A stretch of DNA of 64,000 nt from Candidatus Falkowbacteria bacterium GW2011_GWF2_43_32 (GTDB taxonomy: Bacteria; Patescibacteriota; Patescibacteriia; Patescibacteriales; UBA12465). The notes below the pieces were generated by a model. That model did not search any database, was not told the DNA's origin, and saw nothing but the letters and a program-made list of their open reading frames with translations. Positions within the stretch are counted from its first letter, which is position 1; each line of letters starts with the position of its first letter. The stretch lies in assembly GCA_000999715.1 (NCBI GenBank), contig LCGL01000001.1, positions 131,139 through 195,138 of the forward strand. The letters are read 5' to 3'. Position numbers and translations under genes: made by a program. Positions 7,696-63,552 of this stretch are shown here, one piece after another.

Positions 7696-7700
7696 TTATA

Positions 7701-9352: not shown

Positions 9353-9367
9353 ATCGCAGACAGAAAT

Positions 9368-10733: not shown

Positions 10734-10796
10734 CGCATTAATTATATAAATTTATTAATTACATTATACCATGATTTCCGCCATTTTTGAATATCT

Positions 10797-14342: not shown

Positions 14343-14364
14343 AACTGTCTAAATTATACAATTA

Positions 14365-28530: not shown

Positions 28531-28565
28531 GATAGTGGTGAAAATTATCCTCAAATGCCGACTTT

Positions 28566-30225: not shown

Positions 30226-31305
30226 TTATTCTATTTCTCTCATGGCCAGTCCGATGGCCACGGCCAAACGCGGACCGACTTCGCTCAAAACCGGCTTCAA
30301 CTCCGCCGGATAATGAATGCGATTCCAGGGATCGCCAATAATCACTTTCAAATTCAAGCGAGAAGAAAGATATTCGGCCAAATTCAAAAGTAAAGCTCCG
30401 CCGCCTGATAAGACCACTTTTTCCACTTCGCCGCTGTTTTGCGAGCGAAAAAAATCCAACATATATTGCATCTCGGTCACGATCGGTTCCAAAACTTTGA
30501 CCAAAAACTGCGGCACTTCTTCTTGAGCGTCAGCGCTCAAAGCGCCGCTCAAATCACATTTGAATTGTTCGGCTTGCGCATAAGTCAGACCCATCTTTTC
30601 CGCCAGGGCCTTGGTCACGGTGGAAGCGCAAACCATCAAACTGCGATTTAAAACCGGAATGCTTTCCTTGACGATGGACAAGTCGGTGCTGTTGGCGCCG
30701 ATCTCCACGATCATCACCGTGGATTTATCGTCGCCGAGCAAAGAACGGACCAGAGAAAACGTTTCCGTCTCCAAACTGGCCAGACTCAATTTCGTGGCTT
30801 TGAAAATATCAATATATTTCCGCACCAACTTTTTCGGACTGCCGGTCAAAAAAACTCGCATATTCCCTTTGGTCGGAATCTTGCCGTCGGCTTCCGGAAT
30901 AACTTTCCAGTCCAAAGTCATTTCCTCCAAAGGCAAAGGAATAACTTTTTTGGCTTCTTCGTTAATGGCCGCCGCCAAGCCTTTTTTATCGACGTTGGCG
31001 ATGTTGATGATGGAGGAAAAAACCGCGAAGGTCGGCAAAGAAGCGGTCACTCTTTTGCTGGTAATCCCGGACTCCGTCTTGATTTTGTTGATCGCCCGCG
31101 CCAAATAATTGATGTCCGTCATTTTGGTGAAACTGACATCGCTGGTGCTTTCGCTGAAAGCGTAATTGGACAAATAAATATGACGATTTTTTTTCTTCAG
31201 CTCCACCATTTTCAAAGAAGCGTCGCCGATATCGATTCCCAAATAAAGATTGTTGCCGCTAAAAGAAAATAGACTCATATATGATATAGAAAAAAATCCA
31301 ATCAA
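30226..31305 (-). CDS. pilM: PilM, actin-like ATPase of the type IV pilus machinery
   Basis: The protein is 359 aa with an actin/FtsA-fold signature: LGIDIGDASLKMVEL and VVLSGGGALL. The start is possibly at 31278 (MSLFSF..). Confidence 0.8.
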   Translation of the reverse strand: MIGFFSISYMSLFSFSGNNLYLGIDIGDASLKMVELKKKNRHIYLSNYAFSESTSDVSFTKMTDINYLARAINKIKTESGITSKRVTASLPTFAVFSSIINIANVDKKGLAAAINEEAKKVIPLPLEEMTLDWKVIPEADGKIPTKGNMRVFLTGSPKKLVRKYIDIFKATKLSLASLETETFSLVRSLLGDDKSTVMIVEIGANSTDLSIVKESIPVLNRSLMVCASTVTKALAEKMGLTYAQAEQFKCDLSGALSADAQEEVPQFLVKVLEPIVTEMQYMLDFFRSQNSGEVEKVVLSGGGALLLNLAEYLSSRLNLKVIIGDPWNRIHYPAELKPVLSEVGPRLAVAIGLAMREIE

Positions 31306-32618: not shown

Positions 32619-33275
32619 ATGCGCAAATCTTTTTTGTTGGATTTGCTGTTTCCCGTCAAATGCCTGGCCTGCGGCCAAGAAGGCGCTTGGTTATGCGAAA
32701 GCTGTTTTCGGAAATTGAAATTCGGCGCGCCGGAAACAAAGCATCGGTTGATCGTTCCCGAGCTGACGGCCATCTTCATCGCCGGCGATTACGACGATCC
32801 CTTGTTATCCGAACTGATTAAAAAATTCAAATATAATTTTCTGACCGGCCCGGGAAAAGTTCTGGGGCGGTTTTTAATTTTATTCTGGCAAGGACAGTTG
32901 TCCGCAAATCGCAATTTGGCGGTCGCGGAAAAATTTCTTTTGCTGGCCGTTCCCCTTTCCAAAAAACGCCGCCGTTGGCGCGGCTTCAACCAGGCGGAAA
33001 TTTTGGCGCAAGAATTGGCCGAGAGTTTTTCTTATCCTCTCGGTCAAGAATTGAAACGCATCGGACACCAAAAACCGCAAGCCGAACTGAGCGAACAAGC
33101 TCGATTGGCCAATGTGCGCGACGCTTTCGTTTGGACCGGGGCAAGCTTGGCCGGACAGACAATTTTATTGATAGACGATGTGGTGACAACCGGCGCGACC
33201 TTAAACGAAGCGGCCAAAGCCCTGAAAGCGGCCGGTGCCGCCGCGGTATACGGACTGGTCTTGGCCAAAGGATAA
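32619..33275 (+). CDS. comFC: ComF-family competence protein (phosphoribosyltransferase domain)
   Basis: The protein is 218 aa. The N-terminal zinc-finger pattern is CLACG..C..C. The C-terminal PRTase motif is ILLIDDVVTTGATLNEAAKALKAAGA. Confidence 0.8.
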   Translation: MRKSFLLDLLFPVKCLACGQEGAWLCESCFRKLKFGAPETKHRLIVPELTAIFIAGDYDDPLLSELIKKFKYNFLTGPGKVLGRFLILFWQGQLSANRNLAVAEKFLLLAVPLSKKRRRWRGFNQAEILAQELAESFSYPLGQELKRIGHQKPQAELSEQARLANVRDAFVWTGASLAGQTILLIDDVVTTGATLNEAAKALKAAGAAAVYGLVLAKG

Positions 33276-37748: not shown

Positions 37749-37830
37749 CGCGTTTTAAAATCTCATATCCCGACAATAATGATTATACCATATCGCCCGC
37801 AATCTCCCAATCAGCTAATTCTTCGCTAAA

Positions 37831-37850
37831 ACAGCCCCGAAAGGGGCTGT
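37831..37850 (-). terminator. Hairpin ACAGCCCC-GAAA-GGGGCTGT followed by TTTTAG on the minus strand
   Basis: It sits 8 nt beyond tRNA-fragment copy A. I interpret it as the original terminator of the tRNA-Ser gene and as the present terminator of the TA operon. Confidence 0.5.
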
Positions 37851-37858
37851 CGGTAAAC

Positions 37859-37876
37859 TGCGGAGAGGGTGGGGCG
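37859..37876 (-). repeat. tRNA-Ser 3'-end fragment, copy A (distal, degenerate)
   Basis: It reads tgcggagagggtggggcg, against gcggagaggcggggattc at the 3' end of the intact tRNA (44161-44178). Confidence 0.6.
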
Positions 37877-37918
37877 CACCGGGAACGGCGCTTGATAACT
37901 CCCTGCTGACCTCTTTGT

Positions 37919-38185
37919 TTAAGAAGAATATAACTGGCTGTGCGTGCCAATGGCTACAAAATAAATAATTTGGCCTTCTGCTACTTCTTCAAAAATAGCC
38001 CGCCAGTCACCATTAATATTAATACTCCGATAATTTCGGAGTTCGCCAACCAAGGGATGATTATTCAATATAGAATTATAAGGATCATTAATAAAAATAT
38101 CTAATCTTGCCTTAAAATTAGTTTTTACATTGACCGGACATTTTTTAAATTCCTTAATAAATTTTTTGGAATATTCAATCTGCAT
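37919..38185 (-). CDS. RelE/YafQ-family type II toxin
   Basis: The protein is 88 aa, with KKFIKEFKK at the N-terminus and GDWRAIFEEV..IYFVAIGTHSQLY at the C-terminus, which is the RelE/ParE superfamily pattern. It starts 3 nt after the antitoxin gene. Confidence 0.7.
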   Translation of the reverse strand: MQIEYSKKFIKEFKKCPVNVKTNFKARLDIFINDPYNSILNNHPLVGELRNYRSININGDWRAIFEEVAEGQIIYFVAIGTHSQLYSS

Positions 38186-38188
38186 AAA

Positions 38189-38464
38189 TTATTTACTATC
38201 CAAAAAACTAATGGCGGCCCGGTTATTTTTAAAAGAATAAAAATTACCCGCCCTTCTCTCATCTCTTGATTCTTTTATGGAAGACAATAAATAATCACTC
38301 GGTGTGTCTTCATTTAAAGTAAATAAAACCGCTTTATTGCGAATAAGTTGTTTTAGAAACCCATTAATTGCCCCACTTAAACTTAAGCCTAAATCAGCGG
38401 CTATTTTTTGAGCCTCTTTTTTTATTTTGATATCTGTTTTTATGTTGATAACTGTTGAGTTCAT
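38189..38464 (-). CDS. DinJ/RelB-family antitoxin
   Basis: The protein is 91 aa. INIKTDIKIKKEAQKIAADLGLSLSGAINGFLKQLI is the ribbon-helix-helix pattern of DinJ-type antitoxins. Confidence 0.7.
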   Translation of the reverse strand: MNSTVINIKTDIKIKKEAQKIAADLGLSLSGAINGFLKQLIRNKAVLFTLNEDTPSDYLLSSIKESRDERRAGNFYSFKNNRAAISFLDSK

Positions 38465-38487
38465 ATTTTTATTATTTATAAATTAAT

Positions 38488-38515
38488 GTATACATTGTAT
38501 ATACTTAGTATATAC
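38488..38515. promoter_or_regulatory. Candidate TA operator made of three palindromes: GTATAC, GTATATAC, GTATATAC
   Basis: GTATAC is at 38488-38493, and GTATATAC at 38497-38504 and 38508-38515. They lie 24-51 nt upstream of the antitoxin start. Confidence 0.4.
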
Positions 38516-38676
38516 GATATTGAAAATTTTGTCAATATGTATTAGTTCAATTTTGGAACTCCGCTATTTTACTTGAGTATTAGATAAAATATTTAAATAT
38601 CTACATAATAATTATCATGCTCCCCAATCTACTCTGGAACCAAAAAATAAGGCTTAAGGGCTGTATTTTTCTTAAT

Positions 38677-38695
38677 GCGGAGAGGCGAGGATTCT
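38677..38695 (-). repeat. tRNA-Ser 3'-end fragment, copy B
   Basis: It reads tgcggagaggcgaggattc, with 1 mismatch over 18 nt against the intact tRNA end. Confidence 0.75.
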
Positions 38696-38784
38696 CAAAA
38701 TAATAGAGTTGGCCGCAGTGGTCATCAACCTTGATTGATAACATATTCACTTTAACTAATTATATTTTAACATATTGATAAATT

Positions 38785-38824
38785 TATAAAAAATAGCCTC
38801 GAATTGCTTATGCAATTCGAGGCT
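38785..38824 (-). terminator. Rho-independent terminator after the 38904-39545 gene
   Basis: The 13-bp stem pairs AGCCTCGAATTGC (38795-38807) with GCAATTCGAGGCT (38812-38824). The minus-strand reading continues ATTTTTTAT. Confidence 0.7.
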
Positions 38825-38903
38825 GTATCCGCCAGCCGGCGGACAAAAGGCTAAAGACTGAAGTCTAGAGACTCAAAGAATCAAAAGACTAAGATTTAAA
38901 AAC

Positions 38904-39545
38904 TTACGAAACGACGAAAGCAACCCCGTGCCTACGATTCCACTTGCCATCAGGGTTGTCACAGAACGAGCTCAACGAAGAACTATTGAAATCGCGATTA
39001 GCGTAGAGCAACGTAGAATCGCCGTCAGAATCTTTAATTGGTTCGTGCATAACAACAATCCAATATAAATCCATAGCTTCCAGCTCTTTGTCAGAGAATC
39101 TCTCTCTGATTAAACAGGCCACTTCAGCGTTTGGTGTGGTGAGCTTACGATTTTTAGCATCTTTACGGATGTTTTTAGTGACACGTTCGTTGTCACTAAA
39201 AAGGTCGCCCTTCAAAACGGCAATTTTGTAGGTAATGCCACTTGTCGGTTTAAAGTTTTTTGAACGTAGAACACTTTTAGCGTAATCGCCGACTCGAAAA
39301 CTTTTACTTTCCAAACGAGAGATCCATTCTTCACCGGTGGTGCCATCTGAAGTTACCGAGAAACGGATAACGCTGTCTTTTTCAGTCCACTTCGGTTTGA
39401 TAACTGAAATTTGTACTTCTCCGGCGTTTACCATGCGAATGGCTTCATTAGGGTCATCAATCCCTGTTTGTTTCATGATGTTGTTTACTAAGGCATTTAA
39501 TTTGCCTGTTTCAACGTTCTGGATAGTAAATAAATATTTTTCCAT
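38904..39545 (-). CDS. Hypothetical protein (island cassette)
   Basis: The track ORF runs to 39680. The ATG at 39545 (MEKYLFTIQNVETG..) is preceded by AAGGAG at the right spacing. I recognised no motif. Confidence 0.6.
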   Translation of the reverse strand: MEKYLFTIQNVETGKLNALVNNIMKQTGIDDPNEAIRMVNAGEVQISVIKPKWTEKDSVIRFSVTSDGTTGEEWISRLESKSFRVGDYAKSVLRSKNFKPTSGITYKIAVLKGDLFSDNERVTKNIRKDAKNRKLTTPNAEVACLIRERFSDKELEAMDLYWIVVMHEPIKDSDGDSTLLYANRDFNSSSLSSFCDNPDGKWNRRHGVAFVVS

Positions 39546-39821
39546 GATTATTTCTCCTTGCGCTACATTGCGCTGTTTTACTTTCCTCAACTCCGAGGCG
39601 GAACTGATAACCATTTTGGTCACAGCCAGGAAACGACTATCCGCCAACCGGCGGATTAACCATCTTTTGGCTGTGACCAATTTCGCAAATTAATTTTTAA
39701 AGGTCAATAATTATAAAATATTATATCATATAAATTATATTCTGTCAACTCAGAGAGGGCTGAACAGGTTCGAGCTTTTTATTATTACGCCAATATTAAA
39801 TAAATTAATATAATATCTTTC

Positions 39822-39973
39822 TGCGGAGAGGTGGGGATTATCGCGCTCGCTTTTTGCCATAATGCAAAAAGCTCTCCGCCTCCGCCAGTTGGCGGATGGC
39901 GGACAGTTCAAATCCCTTTCATCTTTTACGCATACAAAAATATAACCCTTCTGGGTTGTATTTTTGTATGCGG
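39822..39973 (-). repeat. Non-coding island module, copy 1, starting with tRNA-fragment copy C and ending in a 19-bp hairpin plus degenerate fragment C'
   Basis: Block 39822-39874 (53 nt) is nearly identical to 43727-43779. Block 39905-39973 (69 nt) is nearly identical to 43881-43949. Confidence 0.8.
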
Positions 39974-40022
39974 GGTATTAGGGACTATATCCGAACTGAA
40001 ATGAAACAAAATACCAATAAAC

Positions 40023-40685
40023 TTATTCAATCCCTCTAACTTCTTGCCAGAACCTCTTAAAATAGGTGACCATAAAATCATGTCTTGCTTTAGCTATTTT
40101 TTTTCCGGTTTTTGTTAGTGTTTTATTCTTTATATTTTTTAACTTGAACTCATATTCCATGATAGCCGTATCGTCAACAGTATAAGCCTTGTCTTTCTTT
40201 AACTTAACTAGTCTCTTCTCATTTCCGGTATATAGAGCGTGTCGTAGATAGCCGGCAAATAAAAAATCACGACCGATACCAACTGCCCCAATAGAGTCTA
40301 ATTTATCCGCATCAAACAATACTTTAGCTTCAATCGTTTTAGGAATATTATTGTTCCTGTATCTGTGGCTAATAATACAATGGAGAATATTATCCATTGT
40401 ATTTTGATCTAATTTATATCTTTGTAAAATCTTATTAGCCATTTCAGCTCCCTTTTCAGCGTGACAAAATTTTCCCCGGCTAGCCATTTCCTCCTTACGA
40501 CCAATATCATGTAATAGACAAGCTGCCATCAAAACAGATAAATCCGCTTTTTCTTTCCGACCGATATTCATAGCCAAACTACAAACACGCTCGACGTGAG
40601 TCCAATCGTGACAACCGTTAGCACCAACAAAAAATTTCTTAGCTTCTTTTTCTATCTTTTTAATGATTTCTTGACTGATTTTCAT
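40023..40685 (-). CDS. HD-domain phosphohydrolase
   Basis: The protein is 220 aa with the metal-binding pattern H..HVERV, LLHDIGR and FDADKLD. Confidence 0.75.
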   Translation of the reverse strand: MKISQEIIKKIEKEAKKFFVGANGCHDWTHVERVCSLAMNIGRKEKADLSVLMAACLLHDIGRKEEMASRGKFCHAEKGAEMANKILQRYKLDQNTMDNILHCIISHRYRNNNIPKTIEAKVLFDADKLDSIGAVGIGRDFLFAGYLRHALYTGNEKRLVKLKKDKAYTVDDTAIMEYEFKLKNIKNKTLTKTGKKIAKARHDFMVTYFKRFWQEVRGIE

Positions 40686-40772
40686 ATTCTTTAAAACTAT
40701 TGCTTTTTTGATTTATCTATGCTATCTTAATAATAGAATTTCTATTAAAAAGCACCTCTTAAAGTTTCGTCT

Positions 40773-41285
40773 TTAAGCGGTGCTTTTTTCTTTAGCTATA
40801 TATTCAAGCTTATTCCTCAAATTATCCATAAACACGATTTTCTCTTTTGCAGTCTTTTTTAACAATTTTGAGCAATTCTTTACATCAGGACTAATCACTC
40901 TAGACAGCTTGCCTTTCTCGTATAAATATTTAACCAAGCAATAAAAGTCGCCATCGCTAGAAACAATAATTGCCTGATCAAAATTATCAAATTCTATCAT
41001 AGTTTGCAAAACCAAATCAGCATCAACATTGCCCTTGGGCTGTCTTTCTTCATTAGACAAAACAGGTTTAAAAATTAAGATATAACCATCTTTTTGCAGG
41101 GATGAATATAAATCCTGATTTTCTGGGATAAATCCGATAAACAAAAATGCCTGAGAAACTTTATACTTCTCTTTTAAATAGACACGAAACTTTTTAAAAT
41201 CAAGCTTCCAATTTAATTTATTAATACCCAGGTTTAAATTCTGGCTATCAATAAAAGCATAGTTGTTTTTGATGTTTTTCTCCAT
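40773..41285 (-). CDS. NYN/LabA-like (PIN-fold) nuclease domain protein
   Basis: The protein is 170 aa with NYAFIDSQNLNLG and AIIVSSDGDFYCLVKYL, the typical NYN-domain acidic motifs. Confidence 0.7.
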   Translation of the reverse strand: MEKNIKNNYAFIDSQNLNLGINKLNWKLDFKKFRVYLKEKYKVSQAFLFIGFIPENQDLYSSLQKDGYILIFKPVLSNEERQPKGNVDADLVLQTMIEFDNFDQAIIVSSDGDFYCLVKYLYEKGKLSRVISPDVKNCSKLLKKTAKEKIVFMDNLRNKLEYIAKEKSTA

Positions 41286-41504
41286 ACAAGATTATTTTAC
41301 CATAAATCTCTGAATCCCAAAAACATACAATTTCGGTTCGAACTTTTTCATGAATGATAAAAAATTAGAAATATTAGCGTTAAAATTGTTATTACCGACA
41401 GAAAAAAGCCAAGAATTCTTAAATACCAATTTTCCACGTTCGAACTTTCAAAAGAGCCGATAAAAAAGGACGAAATGAGCTTTTAGGCTCGCTTCGTCCC
41501 ATTC

Positions 41505-41534
41505 TGCGGAGAGGCGGGGACGTGATTGAAATGG
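41505..41534 (-). repeat. tRNA-Ser 3'-end fragment, copy D (extended repeat shared with copy E)
   Basis: It reads tgcggagaggcggggacgtgattgaaatgg. The first 16 nt match the tRNA end, and the rest matches copy E. Confidence 0.75.
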
Positions 41535-41569
41535 CATTAAATCAAACTTGCGTCAATTTTTTTTAAATT

Positions 41570-43000
41570 TTACAATATTCCACAATTTATCTGACTTATT
41601 TTTTGAATAATACCCTTATTAGCATCTACTTTTATAAAATCCCCATCTTTCAATATCTGTGTGGCTATTTTAGTACCTATAATACAGGGTTTTTTTATTT
41701 CCCTAGAAACAATGGCCGCATGACATAATAGTCCGCCCTCATCGGTTATTATGGCTTTTGCTTTTTTCATAGCCGCTAAATAATCCGGTCTGGTCATCGT
41801 AGAAACCAGTATATCTCCATCTCTAACTTTATTAATGTCATTGGGGTTAATAACTATTTTAACATAGCCAGAAACGATTCCGGGACAAGCCACCTGACCC
41901 TTAATCTCGTGAATATTTTGTTTTTCTTCTTTTTTCACAATTTTATTTTTATCAACGATAATGTTTTTTCCGTCTTGAAAAATGTAAACACAATCCATAA
42001 TCTTTCTTTGCTCAATAATTTTCTTTATCTTTTCTGAATTTTTAAATAGCTCTATAATTTCTTGATGAAGCAACAGGGAAATATCTTCTAAACTAATTCT
42101 ATATCTTTTAGCTATTTCGCTCAGAATCCTGCCGTGTTGATAAAAAGATAGTGATCTGAAATGACTTCTATGGTCTTTCAAGAAAAAATGTTGATGAGCA
42201 TAATCAAGAAATAATTTATCTATTTTTGACCAAGAATGACTCTTGATAAAAGAAATATATCTCTTTTTATTATTTAAAAACTCTTTTTTGGTCTTGTCTA
42301 TAAATTCTCTTGCCTGTTTACGATTAATCTTTTTTGCTCTATTTTTAAAATAAGCTGAGGAATAGGGTTTTACTATGGCACTATAACAAGGTATATAAGA
42401 ATATTTAACCCAATGTTTTTTAAGTAATTTTCCCTTGTCGCCATTATCTAAAATAATCTCCATTAAATCTAGTTGCTCTTGAATGATATAATGGGGCTTT
42501 TCCAAAGAACTAACTATTTCTAGCCCAATTTTAATATTTACTTTATTTCTTAACAGGATTTCTATTAATTTTTTTTCCGTTATCTCACCCAAAATGAAAC
42601 CAACCCAAAGAGCGGAGACGTCGGAATCTAAAACTTTAATTGATTTTTTAAATAATAAAAAAAGCTCTTTATCAGAAGCTTGTTTTAAATTAATTTTGCC
42701 TATCCCTCCAAAATATTTTTCAATAAATAAAGCTCTTTCAATTACTTTATTATTAATATCTTTGAGAAATTTAGAATTTAAAAAACGATTATCAAAAAAA
42801 TAATGATTGAATTCTTCCCACTCTTTATTTAAAAAATATCCATCTGCACTATCTTTTTTGATAAAATAAAGTTGGTTATTTATGCCTCGCCCTATTATTG
42901 CCTTTAAAGGTTTCCGGCAAGAGATGGAATAAGTCTGAGCCTGGTGAAGGGTGAGCGGTCTGTTAAAAAATTTATACCAATTGTTTAAGTTTATTTTCAT
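41570..43000 (-). CDS. PEP-utilizing-enzyme family protein carrying only the central part and the swivel phosphohistidine domain (no ATP-grasp)
   Basis: The protein is 476 aa. Its C-terminus GQVACPGIVSGYVKIV..GDILVSTMTRPDYLAAMKKAKAIITDEGGLLCHAAIVSREIKKPCIIG is the PEP-utilizers mobile domain, with the catalytic His in CHAAIV. Confidence 0.7.
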   Translation of the reverse strand: MKINLNNWYKFFNRPLTLHQAQTYSISCRKPLKAIIGRGINNQLYFIKKDSADGYFLNKEWEEFNHYFFDNRFLNSKFLKDINNKVIERALFIEKYFGGIGKINLKQASDKELFLLFKKSIKVLDSDVSALWVGFILGEITEKKLIEILLRNKVNIKIGLEIVSSLEKPHYIIQEQLDLMEIILDNGDKGKLLKKHWVKYSYIPCYSAIVKPYSSAYFKNRAKKINRKQAREFIDKTKKEFLNNKKRYISFIKSHSWSKIDKLFLDYAHQHFFLKDHRSHFRSLSFYQHGRILSEIAKRYRISLEDISLLLHQEIIELFKNSEKIKKIIEQRKIMDCVYIFQDGKNIIVDKNKIVKKEEKQNIHEIKGQVACPGIVSGYVKIVINPNDINKVRDGDILVSTMTRPDYLAAMKKAKAIITDEGGLLCHAAIVSREIKKPCIIGTKIATQILKDGDFIKVDANKGIIQKISQINCGIL

Positions 43001-43010
43001 ATTTGAAATC

Positions 43011-43040
43011 TGCGGAAAGAGCGGGACGTAGTTGGAATGG
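43011..43040 (-). repeat. tRNA-Ser 3'-end fragment, copy E (degenerate)
   Basis: It reads tgcggaaagagcgggacgtagttggaatgg. It aligns with copy D over about 30 nt with a few changes. Confidence 0.6.
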
Positions 43041-43059
43041 TTATAAATAATAAAATAAT

Positions 43060-43635
43060 TTAAGTTTCATTCTCATTTGCCACAAACTTTTTAAAATTTT
43101 CTATATCCTGCTCAGATCCTAATATGTGTATTTGTTCTGGATTTCTGACTTTAATTTGGATGCCTTCTTTAGTTACAGTAGAGCTTTCTACACTTGCATC
43201 GTATTTGTATATACGGGCACCTTCTGGCGAAAAAGAAGGATTATTGTAGCTTCTATATTCCTTATCATAAATTACTTTTTCCTCAGTGCTATCTTCTGGT
43301 TTAGGCATTATTAAAAGAGATTTAATATTTAAAAGCACGTTATTAATAACATCTCCATAAACACCTTGTATAGGGGAATATGAAAAATATGTACCAAACA
43401 TATTATCTCTAAACTTTTCTATTTTATTAGAGCTTGCATGATAAACAATATCTCTTACTTTACTGTCTGGAAAAATAGTATCTAAATATTCAGAATACTG
43501 TTCTTTTGTTCCAATTTCTGCAAGTTCTGGATTTTGCTCAAATGCAAAATCTACCCCTTCTTTAATTTGAGGTTTTTCAATTTTATTTTCTCTTTTTTCT
43601 GCATTCTGCGAAGCATTGTTAAGAAATTTTTCCAT
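43060..43635 (-). CDS. Hypothetical protein (island cassette)
   Basis: The protein is 191 aa. It is AT-rich and has no secure motif. Confidence 0.55.
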   Translation of the reverse strand: MEKFLNNASQNAEKRENKIEKPQIKEGVDFAFEQNPELAEIGTKEQYSEYLDTIFPDSKVRDIVYHASSNKIEKFRDNMFGTYFSYSPIQGVYGDVINNVLLNIKSLLIMPKPEDSTEEKVIYDKEYRSYNNPSFSPEGARIYKYDASVESSTVTKEGIQIKVRNPEQIHILGSEQDIENFKKFVANENET

Positions 43636-43726
43636 ATTTTACATTTACCTTAATATTAGCATTGCTCGTTCCAAAGTTCAATTCTCCCTACTAAAAACAG
43701 CCCCTATTTCAGGGCTATTTACAAAC

Positions 43727-43949
43727 TGCGGAGAGGCGGGGATTATCGCGCTCGCTTTTTGCCGTAATGCAAAAAGCTCACTTGTCCAGAGTTGGCGTCC
43801 GGATTGCCATTCAGGGCAATCCGTCCGACGCTCGTCCGCTCGTTCCGGCTTCCGCCCTCACTCGCGTCTCGCTGCCAACTAGTTCGAATCCCTTTCGTCT
43901 TTTACGCATACAAAAATACAACCCAAAAGGGTTGTATTTTTGTATGCGG
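43727..43949 (-). repeat. Non-coding island module, copy 2, starting with tRNA-fragment copy F and ending in a 19-bp hairpin that abuts copy G
   Basis: It has the same 53-nt and 69-nt end blocks as 39822-39973, but a 101-nt middle section instead of 30 nt. The hairpin pairs GCATACAAAAATACAACCC (43906-43924) with 43929-43947. Confidence 0.8.
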
Positions 43950-43963
43950 AGAGGCGGGGATTT
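43945..43963 (-). repeat. tRNA-Ser 3'-end fragment, copy G
   Basis: It reads tgcggagaggcggggattt, with 17 nt identical to the intact tRNA end. Confidence 0.8.
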
Positions 43964-44119
43964 CCGCCTCGGGTTGCCTTAGCGGCAACCCTCGTTGTCC
44001 TGGGCGGACCCGCTAAGTGCTCCTTAAGGTCGCGCTTATCGTCGCTCGTTCTCTCGTCCTCATTCCATTCGGACTCGAGTCTCGCTCGCCGCCTGTTCTC
44101 ATCCCCGCCTTCTCAGCTT

Positions 44120-44161
44120 CTAACTAAAAACATACAGCTTGCGCTGTATGTTTTTAGTTAG
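44120..44161 (-). terminator. 19-bp hairpin directly abutting the tRNA-Ser 3' end (terminator-like)
   Basis: CTAACTAAAAACATACAGC (44120-44138) pairs with GCTGTATGTTTTTAGTTAG (43-61, i.e. 44143-44161) around a TTGC loop. Confidence 0.5.
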
Positions 44162-44252
44162 CGGAGAGGCGGGGATTCGAACCCCGGATAGGAGTTTACA
44201 CTCCTATAACAGGTTAGCAACCTGCCGCTTTCAACCACTCAGCCACCTCTCC
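44162..44252 (-). tRNA. tRNA-Ser (anticodon GCU)
   Basis: The minus strand reads GGAGAGGTGGCTGAGTGGTTGAAAGCGGCAGGTTGCTAACCTGTTATAGGAGTGTAAACTCCTATCCGGGGTTCGAATCCCCGCCTCTCCG. The acceptor is 7 bp, the anticodon loop is TTGCTAA, the variable arm is long, the T loop is TTCGAAT and the discriminator is G. CCA is not encoded. Confidence 0.9.
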
Positions 44253-49527: not shown

Positions 49528-51426
49528 TTAGGCCGCTTCTTCCCGCTGGCTTTCTTCAAATTCCTTTTTCGCTTCTTCCAATTCTAACAATTGCCGCGGA
49601 TCGGAAGTAATCAATTGATCTTCGGTATAGGAAGCGACCACTTTCATCGCCACATGTTTATTGCCGGCGAAAAAAATGCCCTCGCCGATTCCGCATTCCA
49701 ACAACAAGTATTTTTCTCCTTCCGTCAGCAAGAAAGTTTTCTGAATCAGGTCAATCGCCGCCGGCGATTGCTTCAACAAAATCTGCAAAGAGGAGTTGGT
49801 GACAATCGCTTGGCCGTAAGGCGAAGTCAAAAAGTCGTTGACGTCCTGCGTGATGGTGGTGACGCCCAAATAGTATTTGCGGCAACGTTTAACCAGCGCA
49901 AAAATGAATTTGGCGCTGTCTTCGTGTTGCATCATCCACCAAGCTTCGTCAATAACCAGGATGCGTTTTTTCATTTCGCTTCTGACCACATTCCAAATAT
50001 AATTGACGATGGTGTAAATGGCAATCGGTCGCAATTCGTCTTCCAAATCCCGCACCGAAAAACAAACCAATTGATTGCTCATGGCCACGTTAGTTTGATT
50101 ATTGAGCAAACCGGCGAAAGTTCCCTCCGTATATTTTCGCAAACGCAAAGCCAAATCCGCGCCACCCTCCATGCCGTCCAAAATTTGTTCAAAATCCGAC
50201 ATAATCGGCGCTTCAATCTTGGTCAAATCGGAATCCGGCGTGATGTCTTTCTTGGCATAAGTTTCCAACAACGCCCGATCGACGATGGAATCTTCGTCAT
50301 AACTCAACTTGCCGAGCATCAACCTGACCAAGCCCTTGAGGGTAATGACGGCACTGCGAATAATGTCTTTCGGCTTGGCCTCTCCGCCGATAGAGCGCGG
50401 CAAATCGAAAGGATTGATTTTATTTTCCGAAGACAAAGAAATATTGATGTAAGTGCCGCCGACCGCTTCCGCCAAATGCTTGTATTCATATTCCGGATCA
50501 ATGACAATCACGTCGGTGCCGAGCATCAAAGAACGCAAAATTTCCAATTTAATGGCATAACTTTTGCCGGCGCCGGAAGTGGCGAAAACGACCGAATTGG
50601 CGTTCTGAAGAGAAAAGCGATCAAAAAGAATCAAACTATTATTGTGACGATTGATGCCGTATAAAATGCCCCGATCGCTGGTCAATTCGCTGGAGATGAA
50701 CGGAAAAGACGAGGCAATCGGCGAAGAATTCATGTTAAAAGTGATATACAATTCATCGTCGCCCAAAGGCAAAGTAGAATTGAAACCTTGTTCCGATTGA
50801 TAATAAACCCGGCGAGAGTAAACCAGGCGCGAACCCAAAATATCTTCCACCGAATCGGACAGACGATCCAGTTCCTCCAGATTTTCCGAATACAAAGTAA
50901 TATACAAAGCGAATTGAAAAAATTTCTCCGTTCCTTGTGTCAGGGCGTCGCGCAAATATTCAATGTCGCGCAAAGCCGTTTCCCGCAAAGGATCGCGAGC
51001 GGCGCCTTTTTCCGCGTCGCTGACAATCTGCGCCTCCAAAGTACCGACTTTGTTTTTCAGTTGTTTTAAAATAATGGCACTCTTGACCGGATAAAAAAAC
51101 ATGGAAACGTCAAAAGTGGAATTCAAATTGATAATCGGCGCGAACCAACCGACGGAAATATAGCGCGGATAGGAAATCACGAATATCGTGCGCAAAAACT
51201 GATTGCCCAAACGAAGGAAATTAGATTCCACTTTCAAGCTGGCCGGAGCGATAACATCGCGTACCGACAGAATGCCGCGACGGAAAGCCTTCTCTTCTTC
51301 AATCACCTCGCGCGTCAATTCCGGATTTTCCTCGATCAAAGGCCCGCCGGCCGGTTTGGGAACGAGAGTAATCGGCGTTTGTAAAGTGATTTTATTCGGT
51401 TGTTCTTCCTTGTTGAAATTAACCAT
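49528..51426 (-). CDS. VirB4/TraE-like type IV secretion ATPase (Gram-positive type)
   Basis: The protein is 632 aa. The Walker A motif is FATSGAGKSYAIK and the Walker B motif is RILVIDEAWWMM. The N-terminal region FLRTIFVISYPRYISVGWF is typical of VirB4-family proteins. Confidence 0.7.
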   Translation of the reverse strand: MVNFNKEEQPNKITLQTPITLVPKPAGGPLIEENPELTREVIEEEKAFRRGILSVRDVIAPASLKVESNFLRLGNQFLRTIFVISYPRYISVGWFAPIINLNSTFDVSMFFYPVKSAIILKQLKNKVGTLEAQIVSDAEKGAARDPLRETALRDIEYLRDALTQGTEKFFQFALYITLYSENLEELDRLSDSVEDILGSRLVYSRRVYYQSEQGFNSTLPLGDDELYITFNMNSSPIASSFPFISSELTSDRGILYGINRHNNSLILFDRFSLQNANSVVFATSGAGKSYAIKLEILRSLMLGTDVIVIDPEYEYKHLAEAVGGTYINISLSSENKINPFDLPRSIGGEAKPKDIIRSAVITLKGLVRLMLGKLSYDEDSIVDRALLETYAKKDITPDSDLTKIEAPIMSDFEQILDGMEGGADLALRLRKYTEGTFAGLLNNQTNVAMSNQLVCFSVRDLEDELRPIAIYTIVNYIWNVVRSEMKKRILVIDEAWWMMQHEDSAKFIFALVKRCRKYYLGVTTITQDVNDFLTSPYGQAIVTNSSLQILLKQSPAAIDLIQKTFLLTEGEKYLLLECGIGEGIFFAGNKHVAMKVVASYTEDQLITSDPRQLLELEEAKKEFEESQREEAA

Positions 51427-51432
51427 ATATAT

Positions 51433-52110
51433 TTATCTTTCCACTCTGATTTTATCCAAGTCCGCCAAATTTTGATTCTTGGCCGTTTCCGGATTGTAAG
51501 TCTTATAGTATAACTCGATCAAACTTTGCGTGTCCAAGCGCGCCGTTGCCACGCCCATGGATTCCATGCCGCCCGCGACGCTGTCAATACGCCTGTCCAA
51601 CATTTCCTGATATTTTTGAAAAGTTTTTTCTTTTAATTTGATAATCGTCGCCGGTCGCAGCGCTTCGGAAAAAAGATTAAAGAAACTCTTATGCTTGTCG
51701 GACAAAGGATTGTAAGGCACGATGACATAAAACCGTTTGTTCATGATTTTACCCAAAGAAGTCAGCTCTTTGATGTATTCGATATAATCGGCGGTCTGCA
51801 CTTTCAACAATTTGTTGATTTGTTCTTTTTCTTTAACCCGCAAATATTCCAAATAATTGTCTATATCCAATTCACGCGATTGAATGACTATTTGCAAAGT
51901 GAAACCCAGATTGTTCAAGAAACGAACATAGGAATCAATGACCGCATTTTGTTCGTCTTCGCTCTTCAAAGAAAAGTTAATGCTGGATACCAGAAGCACG
52001 GCGCGCAAAGTGCCGTCCTTCATAACCACCGTATTGTCTTTAATCTCCGCAATATCCAAATATTGCTGGGTGGACGAGCTTATTTTATTTTTGGTCTGTT
52101 TGTTGGCCAT
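51433..52110 (-). CDS. Hypothetical protein of the T4SS-like cluster
   Basis: The protein is 225 aa and lies between the PrgI-like and VirB4-like genes with 3- and 6-nt gaps. The N-terminus YLDIAEIKDNTVVMKDGTLRAVLLVSSINFSLKSEDEQ weakly resembles VirB4 N-domains. Confidence 0.5.
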   Translation of the reverse strand: MANKQTKNKISSSTQQYLDIAEIKDNTVVMKDGTLRAVLLVSSINFSLKSEDEQNAVIDSYVRFLNNLGFTLQIVIQSRELDIDNYLEYLRVKEKEQINKLLKVQTADYIEYIKELTSLGKIMNKRFYVIVPYNPLSDKHKSFFNLFSEALRPATIIKLKEKTFQKYQEMLDRRIDSVAGGMESMGVATARLDTQSLIELYYKTYNPETAKNQNLADLDKIRVER

Positions 52111-52113
52111 ATA

Positions 52114-52533
52114 TTATTCGCCTTTATATCTTCCTTTAGTGTCCACAATCAGCGCCAATTCCGCCAATCGCGAAGTCTTATATTCTTTTTTAGTCTCCGG
52201 TTCATAACCGGGCTTGATGATATCCAACTTCTCTTCCTGTTCTATGGCCACCAACCGATTATTCCAAACGCGCAGACCCGGACGACGAACGGTTTGAATG
52301 GCATTTAAGACAAACAAATGAAAGGGCTGGCTATTCACTTTAACGAAAGAAAAAACGGCGGCGATTATCGTTATTATAATGGCAATTACCAAAAACAAAG
52401 AAAAATCAAACAAGCGATAACTGATGGCCATAATAATGGCGGCGGCCAGAATAATCAAAAATTGCCGAGTGGTCAACGGACCGATAATCTTGCTTTCCAC
52501 ATCCAGAAATTGTGGCACGGTGAACTGTTGCAT
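52114..52533 (-). CDS. PrgI-family (VirB3-like) small membrane protein
   Basis: The protein is 139 aa. It starts MQQFTVPQFLDVESKIIGPLTTRQFLIILAAAIIMAI and has two TM helices, matching the PrgI-family pattern. Confidence 0.6.
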   Translation of the reverse strand: MQQFTVPQFLDVESKIIGPLTTRQFLIILAAAIIMAISYRLFDFSLFLVIAIIITIIAAVFSFVKVNSQPFHLFVLNAIQTVRRPGLRVWNNRLVAIEQEEKLDIIKPGYEPETKKEYKTSRLAELALIVDTKGRYKGE

Positions 52534-52547
52534 AGATTAAACAAATG

Positions 52548-54365
52548 TTAAAACACTAATTTTCCGTTCAAACTGACGACGGCTTCTATTTCTTCCCGGG
52601 TTAAATAATCTTGTCCGGATTGACGACGCTTCTCTATCGCTTCTTTCAAGGAAATCCCGGCGACAATCGCTTCTTGCCCGGAACGCAGATATAAACGATT
52701 GACCGGGCTTTGTCGCCAAGCGCGAACACCTGCCACCATTTTATCATACCCGTCTTTTTCCAACAATTTTATTTTAGCCAAAACTTTAGCGGTCATCTCC
52801 GCCGGTGTCTGTCCTAAATGACGAAAATTAACCACATCCAAAAATTGCAATTCTTCTATCGGTCCCATTACTTTAGGCACCGCTTTGATATCCTGCAGGC
52901 GCGGACGAGAAGCCGAGACGACGGGAGCGGGACGAGCAAGCGTCGTTTTCGGAACGACCGGAGCGGACGGTGCCGGCGGAGCGGATTGAGCGACCGATGA
53001 GGCAACCGGAATTTTAGACGCAACCGGCACTTTCGGAACAAGCGGCGTTGGCGGAACGGATGAAGCGGATTGAGCAAACGGAGTTTTCGGAGCGATCGGC
53101 GCAGATTGAGTCAGCGTCGTTTTTGGAGCGACCGGAGCGGACGGGACAGCCGGAATTTTCGAAACAGACGAAGCCGTCGGAGGAGTCGGAACGGTCGGAG
53201 TTTTAGCGACCAACGGCGTGGCCGCTATTTTTGCGGCGGTCAATTTTAATTTCTTTTTGGATGTAAACAGTTTGGCCCAAAAACCAAGCGGTTTCGACGG
53301 TTTTACTTTAGCCTTCGTCGGCGTTACCGGAGACGATGGCAGAATTTTTTTAAGCGGTTGGAGCGTTTGTCCTTGCGGAATCGGTCGGAAAGATCTCGTC
53401 GGCACAGCCGCCGCCAGCGGCGAAACTGCCGGGGCTGTCGGAGCTGTCGGAGTTACGGAAACTGTGGCGGCCGTCAGCACGGTTTTATCGGCGGGGGTCG
53501 CCGCAGTCGGCCGAAGCGGAACCGGAGGTTTAACCGGCGCAACGGATTTGGGCTGAACCGATTGAACTGGCTTAGCGGCAGTCTGTCCGGAAGACGGCAA
53601 AATCAATTGTTCTTCCGGCGACGGCAAATCCAATTGTTTTTCTGCGGCCGGCAATTCATGTTTGGTGTCCAATTTTTCCGGCACTTTTATGCGACCATCG
53701 GCGATAACTTGTTTAAGATTATATTCTTCCGCCGAACCCCGGCTCGTAGCCGAGATTTTTTCCGCCCCGGCGATAATTTTATCCAAACGACCCGCCGGAA
53801 CAACCGGCCGAGACGCGGCGGCGGCATCGATTTCCAAACTTTTGAATTGATGACTGTCGCAAATTTTCAATACCCGATTAATTTCCGCGTCGCTTAAACT
53901 CAAGCCGCCGTTAACGACCGGCTTGCTTAAAGACGCGCGCGTATCAATCTTACTGCGTACACCGCGCAAATAAATCGCCAAAATATTTTTAAAACGACCC
54001 AATAAATCCGCACTCGGCAAAACCAAACCCGCCTCCTTAATCAATAACCCTGCATCTTTATCCAAATCCCAGGCACGTTTGTCGGCCGCCAAGCCAAGGT
54101 GATCGGCCGCCACCATAAAAACTTTTTCTTTCAATTCACGAGTCAGATCGGCCGCTTTTTCCGGCGCCAATAAAGCTTCGCCGCTGAAATAAGCCGGCAA
54201 ATCCTGAAGAGCCATTTCCTTAATCATCACTTTCATGACAACCATCGCCAAATCAACGTGATAGCGGTTTTCCAATTCCGTCAAAGAGGCCATCACCGAT
54301 GCCGAAGAAACCTTGTCCCGCAAGTCTTTGGACAGGCTATTAAATTTTTGCAAGTAATCAAACAT
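52548..54365 (-). CDS. Large protein with a central Pro/Ala/Thr/Val-rich low-complexity region, function unknown
   Basis: The protein is 605 aa. The central ~250 aa consist of degenerate repeats such as APVAPKTTLTQSAPIAPKTPFAQSAS. It is the first gene of the T4SS-like block. Confidence 0.6.
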   Translation of the reverse strand: MFDYLQKFNSLSKDLRDKVSSASVMASLTELENRYHVDLAMVVMKVMIKEMALQDLPAYFSGEALLAPEKAADLTRELKEKVFMVAADHLGLAADKRAWDLDKDAGLLIKEAGLVLPSADLLGRFKNILAIYLRGVRSKIDTRASLSKPVVNGGLSLSDAEINRVLKICDSHQFKSLEIDAAAASRPVVPAGRLDKIIAGAEKISATSRGSAEEYNLKQVIADGRIKVPEKLDTKHELPAAEKQLDLPSPEEQLILPSSGQTAAKPVQSVQPKSVAPVKPPVPLRPTAATPADKTVLTAATVSVTPTAPTAPAVSPLAAAVPTRSFRPIPQGQTLQPLKKILPSSPVTPTKAKVKPSKPLGFWAKLFTSKKKLKLTAAKIAATPLVAKTPTVPTPPTASSVSKIPAVPSAPVAPKTTLTQSAPIAPKTPFAQSASSVPPTPLVPKVPVASKIPVASSVAQSAPPAPSAPVVPKTTLARPAPVVSASRPRLQDIKAVPKVMGPIEELQFLDVVNFRHLGQTPAEMTAKVLAKIKLLEKDGYDKMVAGVRAWRQSPVNRLYLRSGQEAIVAGISLKEAIEKRRQSGQDYLTREEIEAVVSLNGKLVF

Positions 54366-54552: not shown

Positions 54553-54636
54553 GGAAGGTGTTGCGCCAAGGTCGGCGTCACTGACTGATAATCAAGTGAT
54601 TCTTTCGAGAATGAGGTTCGAATCCTCCACCTTCCG
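54553..54636 (+). tRNA. Non-canonical tRNA-like gene with an 8-bp acceptor, 4-bp T stem, long variable arm, anticodon loop CUGAUAA (GAU) and discriminator G
   Basis: I folded it by hand. The acceptor pairs GGAAGGTG (54553-60) with CACCTTCC (54628-35). The D arm is GCGCC-AAGGTC-GGCGT. The anticodon stem pairs CACTGA with TCAAGTG and has one bulged A. The loop CTGATAA is at 54585-91. The V arm is ATTCT-TTCG-AGAAT, the T arm is GAGG-TTCGAAT-CCTC, and G is at 54636. Confidence 0.6.
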
Positions 54637-54712
54637 CCGGTATTGCTTTTTCTTTTCAAATTTGCTATCATATTAGCAGTTATCAGTCAGTGATTCTCGT
54701 TATCCGAAATCT

Positions 54713-54757: not shown

Positions 54758-55701
54758 TTATAAAGTCGTAATCGGCCGGCTTTGAGTGATATAAAATTTA
54801 TTTTTCACATAAACCCATTCAATATCGCAAGGAAATTTATAATGTTTCTCGATACCGGCGCAAATTTTCGCCAAGGCCACGATTTGCTTGCCGTTTAATT
54901 TCTGTCTTTCTCCCTGGGCTTTTGGGATCTTAACCCATTTCGTGCCGCCGCCCGTGCCTTTAACTATTTGGCGTGCTTGCGCCGCGATATTAATGTCAAT
55001 CAAAGAATAACCGCGCTTAGAAACCACGTAAGAATCCGGGGTAACGGAGCCGGAAACAATCGCTTCGCCCAAACCGTAGCCGGCTTCAATAATCATTTGA
55101 TTTCTATCCTGCGTTACCGGATGAACGGTAAAGGCGATACCGGAAATTTCCGCCTCCACCATTTTTTGCACCACCACCGCCACGCTCACGGCCGCTTTCA
55201 ACAGTTTCTTTTCATGACGATAGAAAATCGCTCGCGGCGTAAATAAAGACGACCAACATTTTTTTACATTAATCAATAAAGTTTTTTCGGTCGTATTCAA
55301 ATAGGTTTCCAATTCTCCGGCCCAGGAAGCCGTGGACGAATCTTCGGCCGTAGCGCTGGAGCGAATGGCGACGAAAGGCGCTTTCAATTTTTTAAATTCC
55401 GCCATGATATCTTTGGCCAAATCCGTCGGCATCGGCGCCTTGGCAATCAAATCGCGAATAACATTGGAGTAACGATCCACCAAATTAATATCTTTGTAAT
55501 TGATTTTCCTTAACTGCGCCGCCACTTCTTGCGTCAAATCCGTTTCCGTTAAAAACCGATCGGCACCGAAATTTTTGCCGCTGTCATTTCGCCGAGCGAG
55601 GCTCCTTTACCGCCGGCTTCAAAAACGGATTTTTTGCTGATTTTAGAGAAAGATTTGATAAAAGTTAACGATTGTTTTTTTGGTTTATTTTTGTCTTTCA
55701 T
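54758..55701 (-). pseudogene. PPDK_N (PEP/pyruvate-binding, ATP-grasp) domain gene interrupted by a frameshift in a T5 run
   Basis: The N-terminal fragment 55701-55549 reads MKDKNKPKK..FEAGGKGASLGEMTAAKISVPIGF* and ends in GGTTTTTAA. One extra T would read through as GFLTETDLTQEVAAQLRK.. into ORF 54758-55537 (VAIRSSATAEDS, ISGIAFTVHP). Confidence 0.7.
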
Positions 55702-61705: not shown

Positions 61706-61760
61706 AAATTAATTATTTCTAACTATGGATTAAACGTTCTGAATATTCCCAAAAACTAAG

Positions 61761-62564: not shown

Positions 62565-62613
62565 ACATTATGGCGAAAATTATCGATTTGCCTGGACAGC
62601 TATTTTCAAAGAT

Positions 62614-63549: not shown

Positions 63550-63552
63550 AAA

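Follow-up and report, generated by a model that had tools for sequence, protein, structure and literature searches.

How does a series of small gene units, none of which encodes a recombinase, come to be stacked behind a single tRNA gene? The question is raised by tRNA-Ser(GCU) of Candidatus Falkowbacteria bacterium GW2011_GWF2_43_32, where an AT-rich island is divided by repeated copies of the 3' end of the tRNA. The Patescibacteria (candidate phyla radiation, CPR) have tiny genomes with mostly single-copy tRNA genes, and to our knowledge little has been learned about the way in which they acquire genes. The analysis was performed on a window of 64,000 nt (LCGL01000001.1, positions 131,139-195,138). 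All coordinates given below are window positions, except those preceded by the L number of another locus. With a probability of roughly two in three, the window holds a serially loaded integration site of the serine-recombinase type, occupied by five protein-coding cassettes devoid of recombinase and by three copies of a structured non-coding module. An earlier note on the same DNA had proposed a serially used integration hotspot holding small units devoid of recombinase, and this proposal is borne out by junctions located at the repeat, by variability between species and by a foreign composition.

The array behind tRNA-Ser(GCU)

The core of the repeat is defined as the last 14 nt of tRNA-Ser(GCU), CCCCGCCTCTCCGC, and its copies are lettered A to H, plus C'. 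In the window, the core is found without mismatch at 44161 (inside the tRNA), 43946, 43728 and 41506, with one mismatch at 39823 and 38677 and with two mismatches at 37860. These seven clear positions, the tRNA's own included, are all on the minus strand and all within 37860-44174, and each of the seven remaining matches in the window has three mismatches. Fourteen matches with up to three mismatches were observed where 4.8 are expected, a number reached in none of 100 shuffles. Two decayed copies, E (~43012) and C' (~39968), are recognisable in register, and the repetition of the tRNA 3' end claimed earlier is thereby confirmed on one strand. The island displays a GC content of 0.343, compared with 0.46-0.47 in its flanks, and GC at third codon positions (GC3) is 0.18-0.42 in the cassette genes (0.18 in the 191-aa open reading frame (ORF) of cassette 1) versus 0.48-0.57 in host genes. 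The composition of the cassettes is foreign, and the AT-richness previously judged by eye stands, with the exception of the three non-coding modules, which are GC-rich (0.56-0.62). The features of the array are listed below in the order in which they are met outward from the tRNA; model R1 and the type II end are described in the following sections.

44161-44252, minus strand: tRNA-Ser(GCU) (ARAGORN; Rfam tRNA 61.8 bits), whose last 14 nt (44161-44174) are copy H
44120-44161, minus strand: perfect, symmetric, terminator-like 19-bp hairpin directly after the tRNA (inverted-repeat search and sequence)
43946-44105, minus strand: module copy 1 (R1 75.1 bits, E 1.7e-17, not in the seed), with copy G (43946-43959) as tail
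43905-43948, minus strand: perfect 20-bp hairpin after copy G (inverted-repeat search)
43728-43892, minus strand: module copy 2 (R1 169 bits, seed member), with copy F (43728-43741) as tail
43012-43727, minus strand: cassette 1, with a hairpin (43702-43714), a 191-aa ORF (43060-43635), a type II end and degenerate copy E (43012-43025)
41506-43011, minus strand: cassette 2, with a 476-aa protein (41570-43000), type II end gccatttcaatcacgt and copy D (41506-41519)
41463-41519, plus strand: recombinase fossil, a remnant of the final ~17 codons of a gene for a large serine recombinase, reading into copy D (...KKGRNELLGSLRPILRRGGD)
39968-41505, minus strand: cassette 3, with the recombinase fossil and a hairpin at its start, an NYN protein (40773-41285) and an HD phosphohydrolase (40023-40685)
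39823-39972, minus strand: hairpin (39929-39972) and module copy 3 (39826-39916), with copy C (39823-39836) as tail
38677-39822, minus strand: cassette 4, with a 213-aa ORF (38904-39545), a terminator-like hairpin (38795-38824) and copy B (38677-38690)
37860-38676, minus strand: cassette 5, with a hairpin at its start, a RelB antitoxin (38189-38464) and a YafQ/ParE-type toxin (37919-38185; Pfam)
37826-37859, minus strand: GC-rich hairpin and T-run acagcccctttcggggctgtttt after copy A, followed by a host methyltransferase gene

Read as units, the array thus starts with copy H, then displays hairpin, module 1 and tail G, then hairpin, module 2 and tail F. It continues with the 191-aa cassette, its type II end and E, the PEP-utilizer (phosphoenolpyruvate-utilizer) cassette, its type II end and D, and the recombinase fossil, NYN, HD, a type II-like end and C'. 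Hairpin, truncated module 3 and tail C come next, and the series is completed by the 213-aa cassette and B, the RelB/YafQ cassette with its type II end and A, the GC-rich terminator and the host genes. The tRNA gene is preceded by a promoter-like site (TTGACA-17-TATAGT, 44370-44342). The hairpin with T-run at 37826-37859 is similar to the sequence found directly after tRNA-Ser in L011, L017 and L044, and is probably the original terminator of tRNA-Ser(GCU). The two extensions of the core that had been noticed, ~14 nt common to D and E and ~36 nt common to C and F, are both real, the latter amounting to 54 nt at 96% identity.

The earlier gene calls proved correct by Pfam: the YafQ/ParE and RelB pair, HD, NYN, the swivel-domain protein and two proteins without family. 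The 476-aa protein of cassette 2 matches the PEP-utilizers swivel domain only, at its C-terminus (Pfam PF00391, E 3e-24), and its NCBIfam matches are likewise confined to the swivel region. The 191-aa and 213-aa proteins have no match in Pfam, NCBIfam or PADLOC. Promoter-like sites are present in cassette 4 (TTGACA-17-TGnTATAAT, 39748-39720, a perfect extended -10 consensus) and in cassette 5 (38535-38507). Cargo at this locus and in relatives includes toxin-antitoxin pairs, nucleases, Fic, zeta-like kinases, deaminases and methyltransferases. The defensive role previously suggested for the cargo is weakly based, since PADLOC returns weak matches for the HD and NYN proteins only. Proteins in which the PEP-utilizers swivel is the only domain are met again among the cargo of islands in L006, L044, L117, L134, L149, L188 and L115, and a protein with PPDK_N only (54758-55537) lies 12 kb from the swivel-only protein of the window (41570-43000); such a pair could be a split PEP-synthase or rifampicin-phosphotransferase-like system.

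Junctions, exchanged cassettes and recombinases

The Ser-type cores of all loci were classed by the sequence that precedes them. Eighty are true tRNA ends, preceded by GTTCGAAT, 42 are module ends, preceded by GCGnnAAT, and more than 30 follow a conserved block, (A/T)CCGTTCCAA(C/G)T(A/G)CGT, referred to here as the type II end. Block and core together span ~29 nt, CCGTTCCAAnTnCGT-CCCACCCTCTCCGC, and terminate cassettes across many related genomes, the block being present at over 30 distinct positions. The core borne by the type II end nearly always reads CCCACCCTCTCCGC (CCCACCC), while host tRNA cores read CCCTCCTT, CCCCGCCT, CCCTGCCT or CCCTTCCT. Since it is nearly constant whatever the host core, this copy is carried by the element and is not a displaced piece of host tRNA, and the former view that all repeats are displaced host tRNA ends therefore has to be abandoned. 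Of the window copies, A, D, E and C' belong to type II ends, G, F and C are module tails and B is of a third kind. Four of the five protein cassettes close with the type II block: cassette 3 does so with a type II-like end followed by decayed copy C' (~39968-39981), and cassette 5 with gccgttcccggtgcgc followed by copy A (37860-37873), which displays the exact element-type core CCCACCCTCTCCGC. The end of cassette 4 reads ...ttttgagaat ahead of copy B.

Comparison of junctions places the start of the inserted DNA right after ...CTCCGC. The mature tRNA is therefore untouched and its trailer alone is replaced, and most units consequently start with a hairpin of their own. The claim that every copy is followed by its own hairpin holds for H, G, F, D, C', B and A and fails for E and C. 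As any core can take an insertion, the order of the units need not be strictly chronological.

Homologues of two cassettes surfaced by chance (L143, L129, L183) among the metagenome loci collected for the module. The NYN cassette and its counterpart in L143 are 82% identical in DNA and 91% in protein, and the similarity begins exactly at the core. Upstream of this point lies the type II end of the PEP-utilizer cassette in the window and a module in L143, and the cores ahead of the two cassettes differ as host cores do. The 213-aa cassette has relatives in L129 (78% DNA and 77% aa identity), where it also follows a module, and in L183 (74% DNA and 57% aa identity), where the alignment ends with the base immediately preceding copy B. 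For the 175-aa host protein of the flank, identity across loci of this kind is 59-72%, compared with 77-91% for cassette proteins, which indicates that the cassettes are younger than the species split. These alignments support the view that the cassettes are discrete units exchanged between genomes.

The same island is present in a 418-kb JGI (Joint Genome Institute) metagenome contig and in GenBank assembly GCA_003489845.1, and a third assembly breaks inside the array. A RecG-anchored scan, limited to one genome per species, yielded 80 Patescibacteria loci, across which the order tRNA-Ser(GCU), 175-aa membrane protein, tRNA-Arg(GCG), RecG and RadA is widely kept. Nothing is kept downstream of the tRNA: content differs completely between species, so that the locus is far from invariant and syntenic among relatives. 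The genes for YafQ, RelB, the 213-aa protein, HD, NYN and the 191-aa protein occur in none of these 80 loci, and distant homologues of the PEP-utilizer swivel protein are the only window cargo that recurs there. The interval from tRNA-Ser(GCU) to the next syntenic gene varies from ~1.6 to 8 kb. In several genomes tRNA-Ser(UGA) follows at a distance of 12-370 nt, which looks like the unloaded state, and in others the two genes are separated by 1-7.7 kb. About 12 contigs end within ~170 nt of tRNA-Ser(GCU), as expected at a repeated or variable spot, and arrays of tRNA-end copies are also observed in L005, L013, L014, L034, L037, L044 and others.

The absence of an integrase from the array, as stated earlier, is confirmed: none of the 40 window ORFs scanned with Pfam is a recombinase, the window gave no match in profile or BLAST searches with either of the recombinase families seen in relatives, and tBLASTn with eight serine recombinases produced only a trivial antisense-tRNA match. 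A candidate can nevertheless now be named from relatives. A strict motif expression caught only tyrosine recombinases (L025, L033), and the serine enzymes were found by running Pfam on L053 and by a home-made profile. Far commoner at the site than the tyrosine enzymes, in eleven loci with fragments included, is a large serine recombinase that combines Resolvase, Recombinase and zinc-ribbon domains (as displayed by L053) and is encoded on the strand opposite the tRNA, converging on it. In L053, L043, L079, L005 and L075 its gene adjoins or overlaps the tRNA-Ser(GCU) 3' end, and in L004 that of tRNA-Ser(UGA); L060 and L047 have additional copies in the vicinity, and fragments are left in L014, L017 and L036. 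In several of these proteins the C-terminal residues, ...RRGGDSNPR, result from reading the tRNA end in antisense. Among metagenome loci, serine recombinases were found directly after a tRNA-Lys, a module tail or a type II block. The best NCBIfam matches of the relatives' enzymes are CcrB, XisF, CcrA and CcrC, all below family cut-offs (64-138 bits for L053 and L005 against the CcrB, CcrA and CcrC models, whose cut-offs are 700-900 bits).

The window itself retains a trace of such a gene. The fossil reading into copy D, found by directed translation, compares with the C-terminus of the L004 recombinase (...KRRNELLDSLRPCLRRGWDSNPRYP); its DNA is 79% identical to L004 4182-4259, and stop codons lie upstream of it. 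In L005, the recombinase-bearing element also encodes a rolling-circle Rep protein and ends in a type II block. A tyrosine recombinase of integron or tycheposon type was set aside as the candidate enzyme in favour of the large serine recombinase found at the same site in relatives. Tyrosine recombinases are present at this tRNA in L025 and L033, and have no homologue in the window. In L025, 41-nt copies of the tRNA 5' half (164-204, 9193-9233 and 9272-9312) flank a ~9-kb element inserted in the anticodon loop of tRNA-Ser(GCU), with the recombinase at 8013-9152; the promoter side is bordered by two copies of the tRNA 5' part, which mirrors what is usually found.

Two side observations concern recombinase-bearing loci. 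L005 contains a 652-nt direct repeat (96-747 and 7162-7813, 99.5% identical) that takes in the core together with the 3' portion of the recombinase gene and extends to the start of the contig; either one element is present twice in tandem or the repeat results from assembly. In L079, inverted repeats that are 100% identical (5655-5759 / 7208-7312 and 7310-7399 / 8786-8875) join two tRNA-Ser genes and a serine recombinase element, an arrangement that suggests recombinase-mediated inversion.

A structured module behind tRNA genes

The non-coding units of the array, described earlier simply as non-coding, are neither empty cassettes nor debris: they are copies of a conserved folded element of ~160 nt found behind many tRNA genes. 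The module consists of GGGATTCGAAC, a closing helix around two hairpins, the stretch CYGGACAAGUGAGC, another hairpin, GCGAGCGCG(R)AAAUCCC and a tRNA tail, an architecture common to the three non-coding units of the window and to units in L005, L013, L014, L034 and L037. A pattern scan of metagenome contigs located it at no fewer than 120 loci (at least 120), ~50-60 nt behind tRNA genes and in the same orientation. Among the matches listed, the tRNAs ahead of modules are Ser (GCU, UGA, GGA), Gln, Ala, Asp, Asn, Lys, Tyr and Pro, that is, at least eight identities. The tail of a module usually copies the 3' end of its own neighbouring tRNA.

An alignment of 24 sequences served as the seed from which covariance model R1 was built. 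The consensus fold comprises five helices and 33 pairs, 27 of which display compensatory changes (27-28 overall). In the seed alignment, 95.2% of cells are paired versus 72.5% after shuffling, and the covariation score is 0.61 versus 0.20, a value reached by none of 500 shuffles and reduced to 0.06-0.11 when partners are slid. On 71 distinct further metagenome sequences aligned to the model, covariation amounts to 0.68 versus 0.19. The window contains exactly three R1 copies, all in the island (169, 75 and 54 bits). Elsewhere, 11 copies were found in species loci and 80, among the matches listed, in metagenome loci, often in tandem, and ~90 distinct copies were collected. Within the window, module 1 has a fold z-score of -4.5 and an outer helix P1 extended by GAGAAGGCGGGGAU / AUCCCCGCCUCUC, and module 2 adopts the consensus fold as its minimum-energy fold (z-score -2.2). 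Module 3 is devoid of helices P3 and P4, 73 model positions being replaced by 10 nt (R1 54.5 bits, E 2.6e-12), and its hairpin is 95% identical to the one after copy G.

The module is most likely an RNA made from the tRNA strand, the alternative being a folded DNA strand. G-U pairs outnumber A-C pairs in its helices (100 vs 33), one hairpin has a conserved GGAA loop, and in 8 of 10 cases a better fold is obtained for the tRNA-sense strand than for its complement. A long outer helix involving the whole tRNA tail was rejected as a general feature: extension by at least 4 bp into the tail is observed in 13% of copies, versus 1.4% for mismatched partners, so the tail is probably unpaired in most copies. 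A tmRNA or a tRNA-like gene on the opposite strand was also rejected, as no T-arm or acceptor stem can form, ARAGORN returns nothing and the G-U pairs speak for the tRNA strand. Rfam has no match to the modules other than chance hairpins (43728-44120 and 39823-39930, E up to 1), and its gathering scores are reached in the window by two tRNAs only. The module pattern and the type II block are both absent from the viral contigs of IMG/VR, which lends no support to derivation from a phage, and the same search revealed no free circular form. No description of the module was found in literature searches, and nothing relevant emerged from those on Patescibacteria or CPR combined with serine recombinase, tRNA or genomic island. 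From these comparisons the module appears to be undescribed, with strong comparative support.

Units with or without a recombinase begin directly after module tails in L202, L143, L129 and L160 and after copy F of the window, which indicates that the tails serve as insertion sites. At tRNA-Gln in L134, hairpin, module and tail are duplicated (3148-3312 and 6100-6264, ~99%) around a 2.7-kb cassette. A type II-like end whose sequence is adapted to tRNA-Gln lies ahead of the second module copy, so that arrays are built in the same way at other tRNAs as well. Near-identical module bodies with different upstream hairpins and tails lie behind tRNA-Gln (L134) and tRNA-Ser(GGA) (L153), and could result from transfer or from concerted evolution within one genome. 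A short palindrome (...CCTGCCGGCAGG...) was observed inside the tRNA-end copy of module tails in L153, L181, L014 (5043-5080), L097 and L137, and may be a tiny separate repeat element.

Proposed mechanism, rival explanations and known systems

The proposed mechanism can be briefly summarized as follows. Mobile elements of this lineage carry a large serine recombinase, distantly Ccr/XisF-like, whose gene converges on and often reads into the tRNA 3' end, as observed in relatives. As the junctions show, they insert immediately after ...CTCTCCGC and leave the mature tRNA intact. One end of the incoming element supplies the new hairpin seen behind the tRNA and the other carries its own tRNA-end look-alike, CCGTTCCAAnTnCGT-CCCACCCTCTCCGC. 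Every look-alike and every module tail could then act as a landing site, so that elements would accumulate, and the junctions found after tails point to modules as providers of extra sites. Loss of the recombinase gene would leave short cassettes still flanked by sites, a step of which the fossil at 41463-41519 provides the one example, and such cassettes could be moved by the recombinase of a neighbouring or incoming element.

A number of points weigh against this scheme. The island is identical in the comparable independent assemblies (L001, L002) and thus gives no sign of ongoing turnover in this population, and neither a circular junction nor an empty site of a single cassette was seen. 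The 64 kb examined are devoid of recombinase, so that mobilisation in trans would be hypothetical, and the association between serine recombinase and type II block is suggested by their co-occurrence in one complete element (L005) and at junctions. Copy B and the end of its cassette (gagaat) fit neither main class, and copy D combines a type II arm with a host core. The L025 element, which uses the anticodon loop, indicates that more than one system targets tRNA-Ser(GCU). Serine recombinases normally need an intact attB; repeated insertion would therefore require the acceptance of look-alike sites.

The units could instead form a graveyard in which each is the eroded stump of a recombinase-bearing element that inserted itself, nothing being mobile and nothing having been moved in trans. 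This is judged unlikely, even though the fossil at the start of the NYN/HD cassette, the decay of E and C', the internal deletion of module 3, the identity of the independent assemblies compared and the lack of a recombinase in the window are all in keeping with it. The NYN cassette of L143 carries the same truncated recombinase end with 91% protein identity in a setting of different host tRNA core and flanks. The recombinase-less form, already truncated there, has thus spread or persisted across species. The type II blocks of recombinase-less cassettes have moreover kept their sequence well at over 30 places, suggesting continued selection as sites. An integron-like arrangement, where the module would be an attC folding as single-stranded DNA, the tRNA end an attI, and cassettes would be exchanged singly, appears quite improbable. 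The module does start with an inverted T-loop (GGGATTCGAAC) and end with AAUCCC and the tRNA tail, resembling a pairing of inverse core and core; its structure is more conserved than the sequence of its helices, and an alternation of modules and cassettes is seen in the window, L005, L134 and L159. However, no integron-type tyrosine recombinase was found here or in relatives, most protein cassettes of the window have no module and close in a type II block, and cassettes have their own promoter-like sites. The joining regions of the module are also conserved in sequence though unpaired, and its GNRA-type loop and G-U pairs point to RNA.

Homologous or homology-assisted incorporation of DNA taken up by this competent-looking organism, anchored on the tRNA gene and shared modules without site-specific recombination, is regarded as very improbable indeed. 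The window encodes a type IV pilus and ComF-like competence functions, and tRNA, terminator types and modules are shared between species as possible anchors, but one-sided homology gives no reason to expect unrelated cassettes to share a conserved 29-nt block at their far end, nor does it predict junctions at the same nucleotide after ...CTCCGC or serine recombinase genes located exactly at the junction.

Composite islands of the staphylococcal cassette chromosome (SCC) involve a serine recombinase, insertion at the 3' end of one host gene, tandem elements and recombinase-less pseudo-SCC (10.1101/336396; PMC3900703). The present array shares with them insertion at the 3' end of a conserved host gene without destruction of the target, tandem units bounded by direct repeats of the target end, some of them recombinase-less, and large serine recombinases, those of relatives matching CcrB/CcrA/CcrC below cut-offs. 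It differs by its target (the tRNA-Ser(GCU) 3' boundary, or other tRNAs elsewhere, in place of the 3' end of rlmH (orfX)), by the size of its units (0.8-1.5 kb versus tens of kb), by its Patescibacteria host, by the structured module adding sites and by the overlap of the recombinase gene with the attachment site. Score cut-offs and target both exclude the array from the Ccr families; by analogy, the array would work like SCC without being SCC.

Accretion has also been described in streptococci, where cis-mobilizable elements (CIMEs) are att-flanked units without recombination genes that are arranged in tandem at a gene 3' end and movable by an incoming element (PMC5704250). The window cassettes are similarly bounded by cores and recombinase-less, and four of them share the type II end with the recombinase-bearing element of L005. 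CIMEs were however described with tyrosine recombinases and conjugation modules, whereas the candidate here is a serine recombinase, no conjugation module is present in the array and mobilisation would be putative. In the tycheposon islands of Prochlorococcus, successive insertions at tRNAs push older elements inward and leave partial tRNAs and degenerate elements (10.1101/2020.12.28.424599). Serial loading at a tRNA and partial-tRNA debris are common to both. In contrast, tycheposons carry an integrase, mostly of the tyrosine type, replicate and carry cargo, whereas the window units have no integrase, their far-end repeat is element-borne instead of a displaced tRNA piece, and a structured module is part of the array.

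The earlier likening to integron cassettes and partial-tRNA arrays is fair as an analogy. Like an integron, the array displays many one- or two-gene units in one orientation, separated by recombination sites, and the module has paired inverse-core/core ends. An attC site is an imperfect palindrome with R''/L''/L'/R' boxes, and integron cassettes are mostly promoterless; cassettes carrying their own promoters are unlike those of an integron and weaken the analogy. No IntI is present among the 40 window ORFs, and four of the five cassettes end, as judged from the ends and with no attC model run, in a linear 29-nt block and not in a folded site. Identity with an integron is ruled out by the absence of IntI, the linear cassette ends and the cassettes' own promoter-like sites.

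Other features of the window lie outside the array. A type IV pilus/competence-like cluster extends from 19.8 to 33.3 kb and includes a PilB-type ATPase (26773-28554), PilC (25548-26753), PilM (30226-31305), a pseudopilin-like protein (19890-20534) and a ComF-like protein (32619-33275). Type IV secretion-like genes (TraG/VirB4-type ATPase, TraC-like, PrgI-like and a 605-aa protein) occupy 49528-54365 and are kept beside RadA in relatives. ARAGORN reports an 86-nt tRNA-Ile(GAU) at 54553-54638 on the plus strand, beside the PPDK_N ORF (54758-55537); it scores below the Rfam tRNA gathering score and may be a false call or an unusual tRNA. A second low-GC stretch, 60000-64000 (0.35-0.39), holds an ABC transporter set (NMT1-type binding protein, permease and ATPase) and a 311-aa protein, and no tRNA-end repeats were seen in it. 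A protein with a Peptidase_S74 domain (endosialidase chaperone, tail-fibre-like) and three very large ORFs (1446, 1181 and 944 aa) are located at 176-871 and 3355-17199.

Together with its relatives, the locus displays a compact and recurrent stacking of cassettes of one or two genes precisely where a tRNA gene ends, the gene itself being left undamaged. The logic of SCC islands is met here in a very distant lineage at one tenth of the size. Serial site-specific accretion at a gene 3' end is known; here it occurs in an unusual lineage and involves an apparently undescribed structured element. The module is among the better-supported new structured elements obtainable from sequence alone, and the match between its tail and the 3' end of the neighbouring tRNA raises the question of tRNA-end mimicry or site renewal. 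It is put forward as a speculative proposition, held with little confidence, that the module is a new class of Patescibacteria-specific structured RNA or folded DNA site, placed behind tRNA genes with a copy of their 3' end, which, together with the Ccr-like recombinase and the type II block, forms an undescribed cassette-capture system. If this were true, the module would be a renewable landing pad or a regulator of insertion, and the whole would constitute a functional counterpart of the integron made of other components, in hosts whose gene exchange is poorly known.

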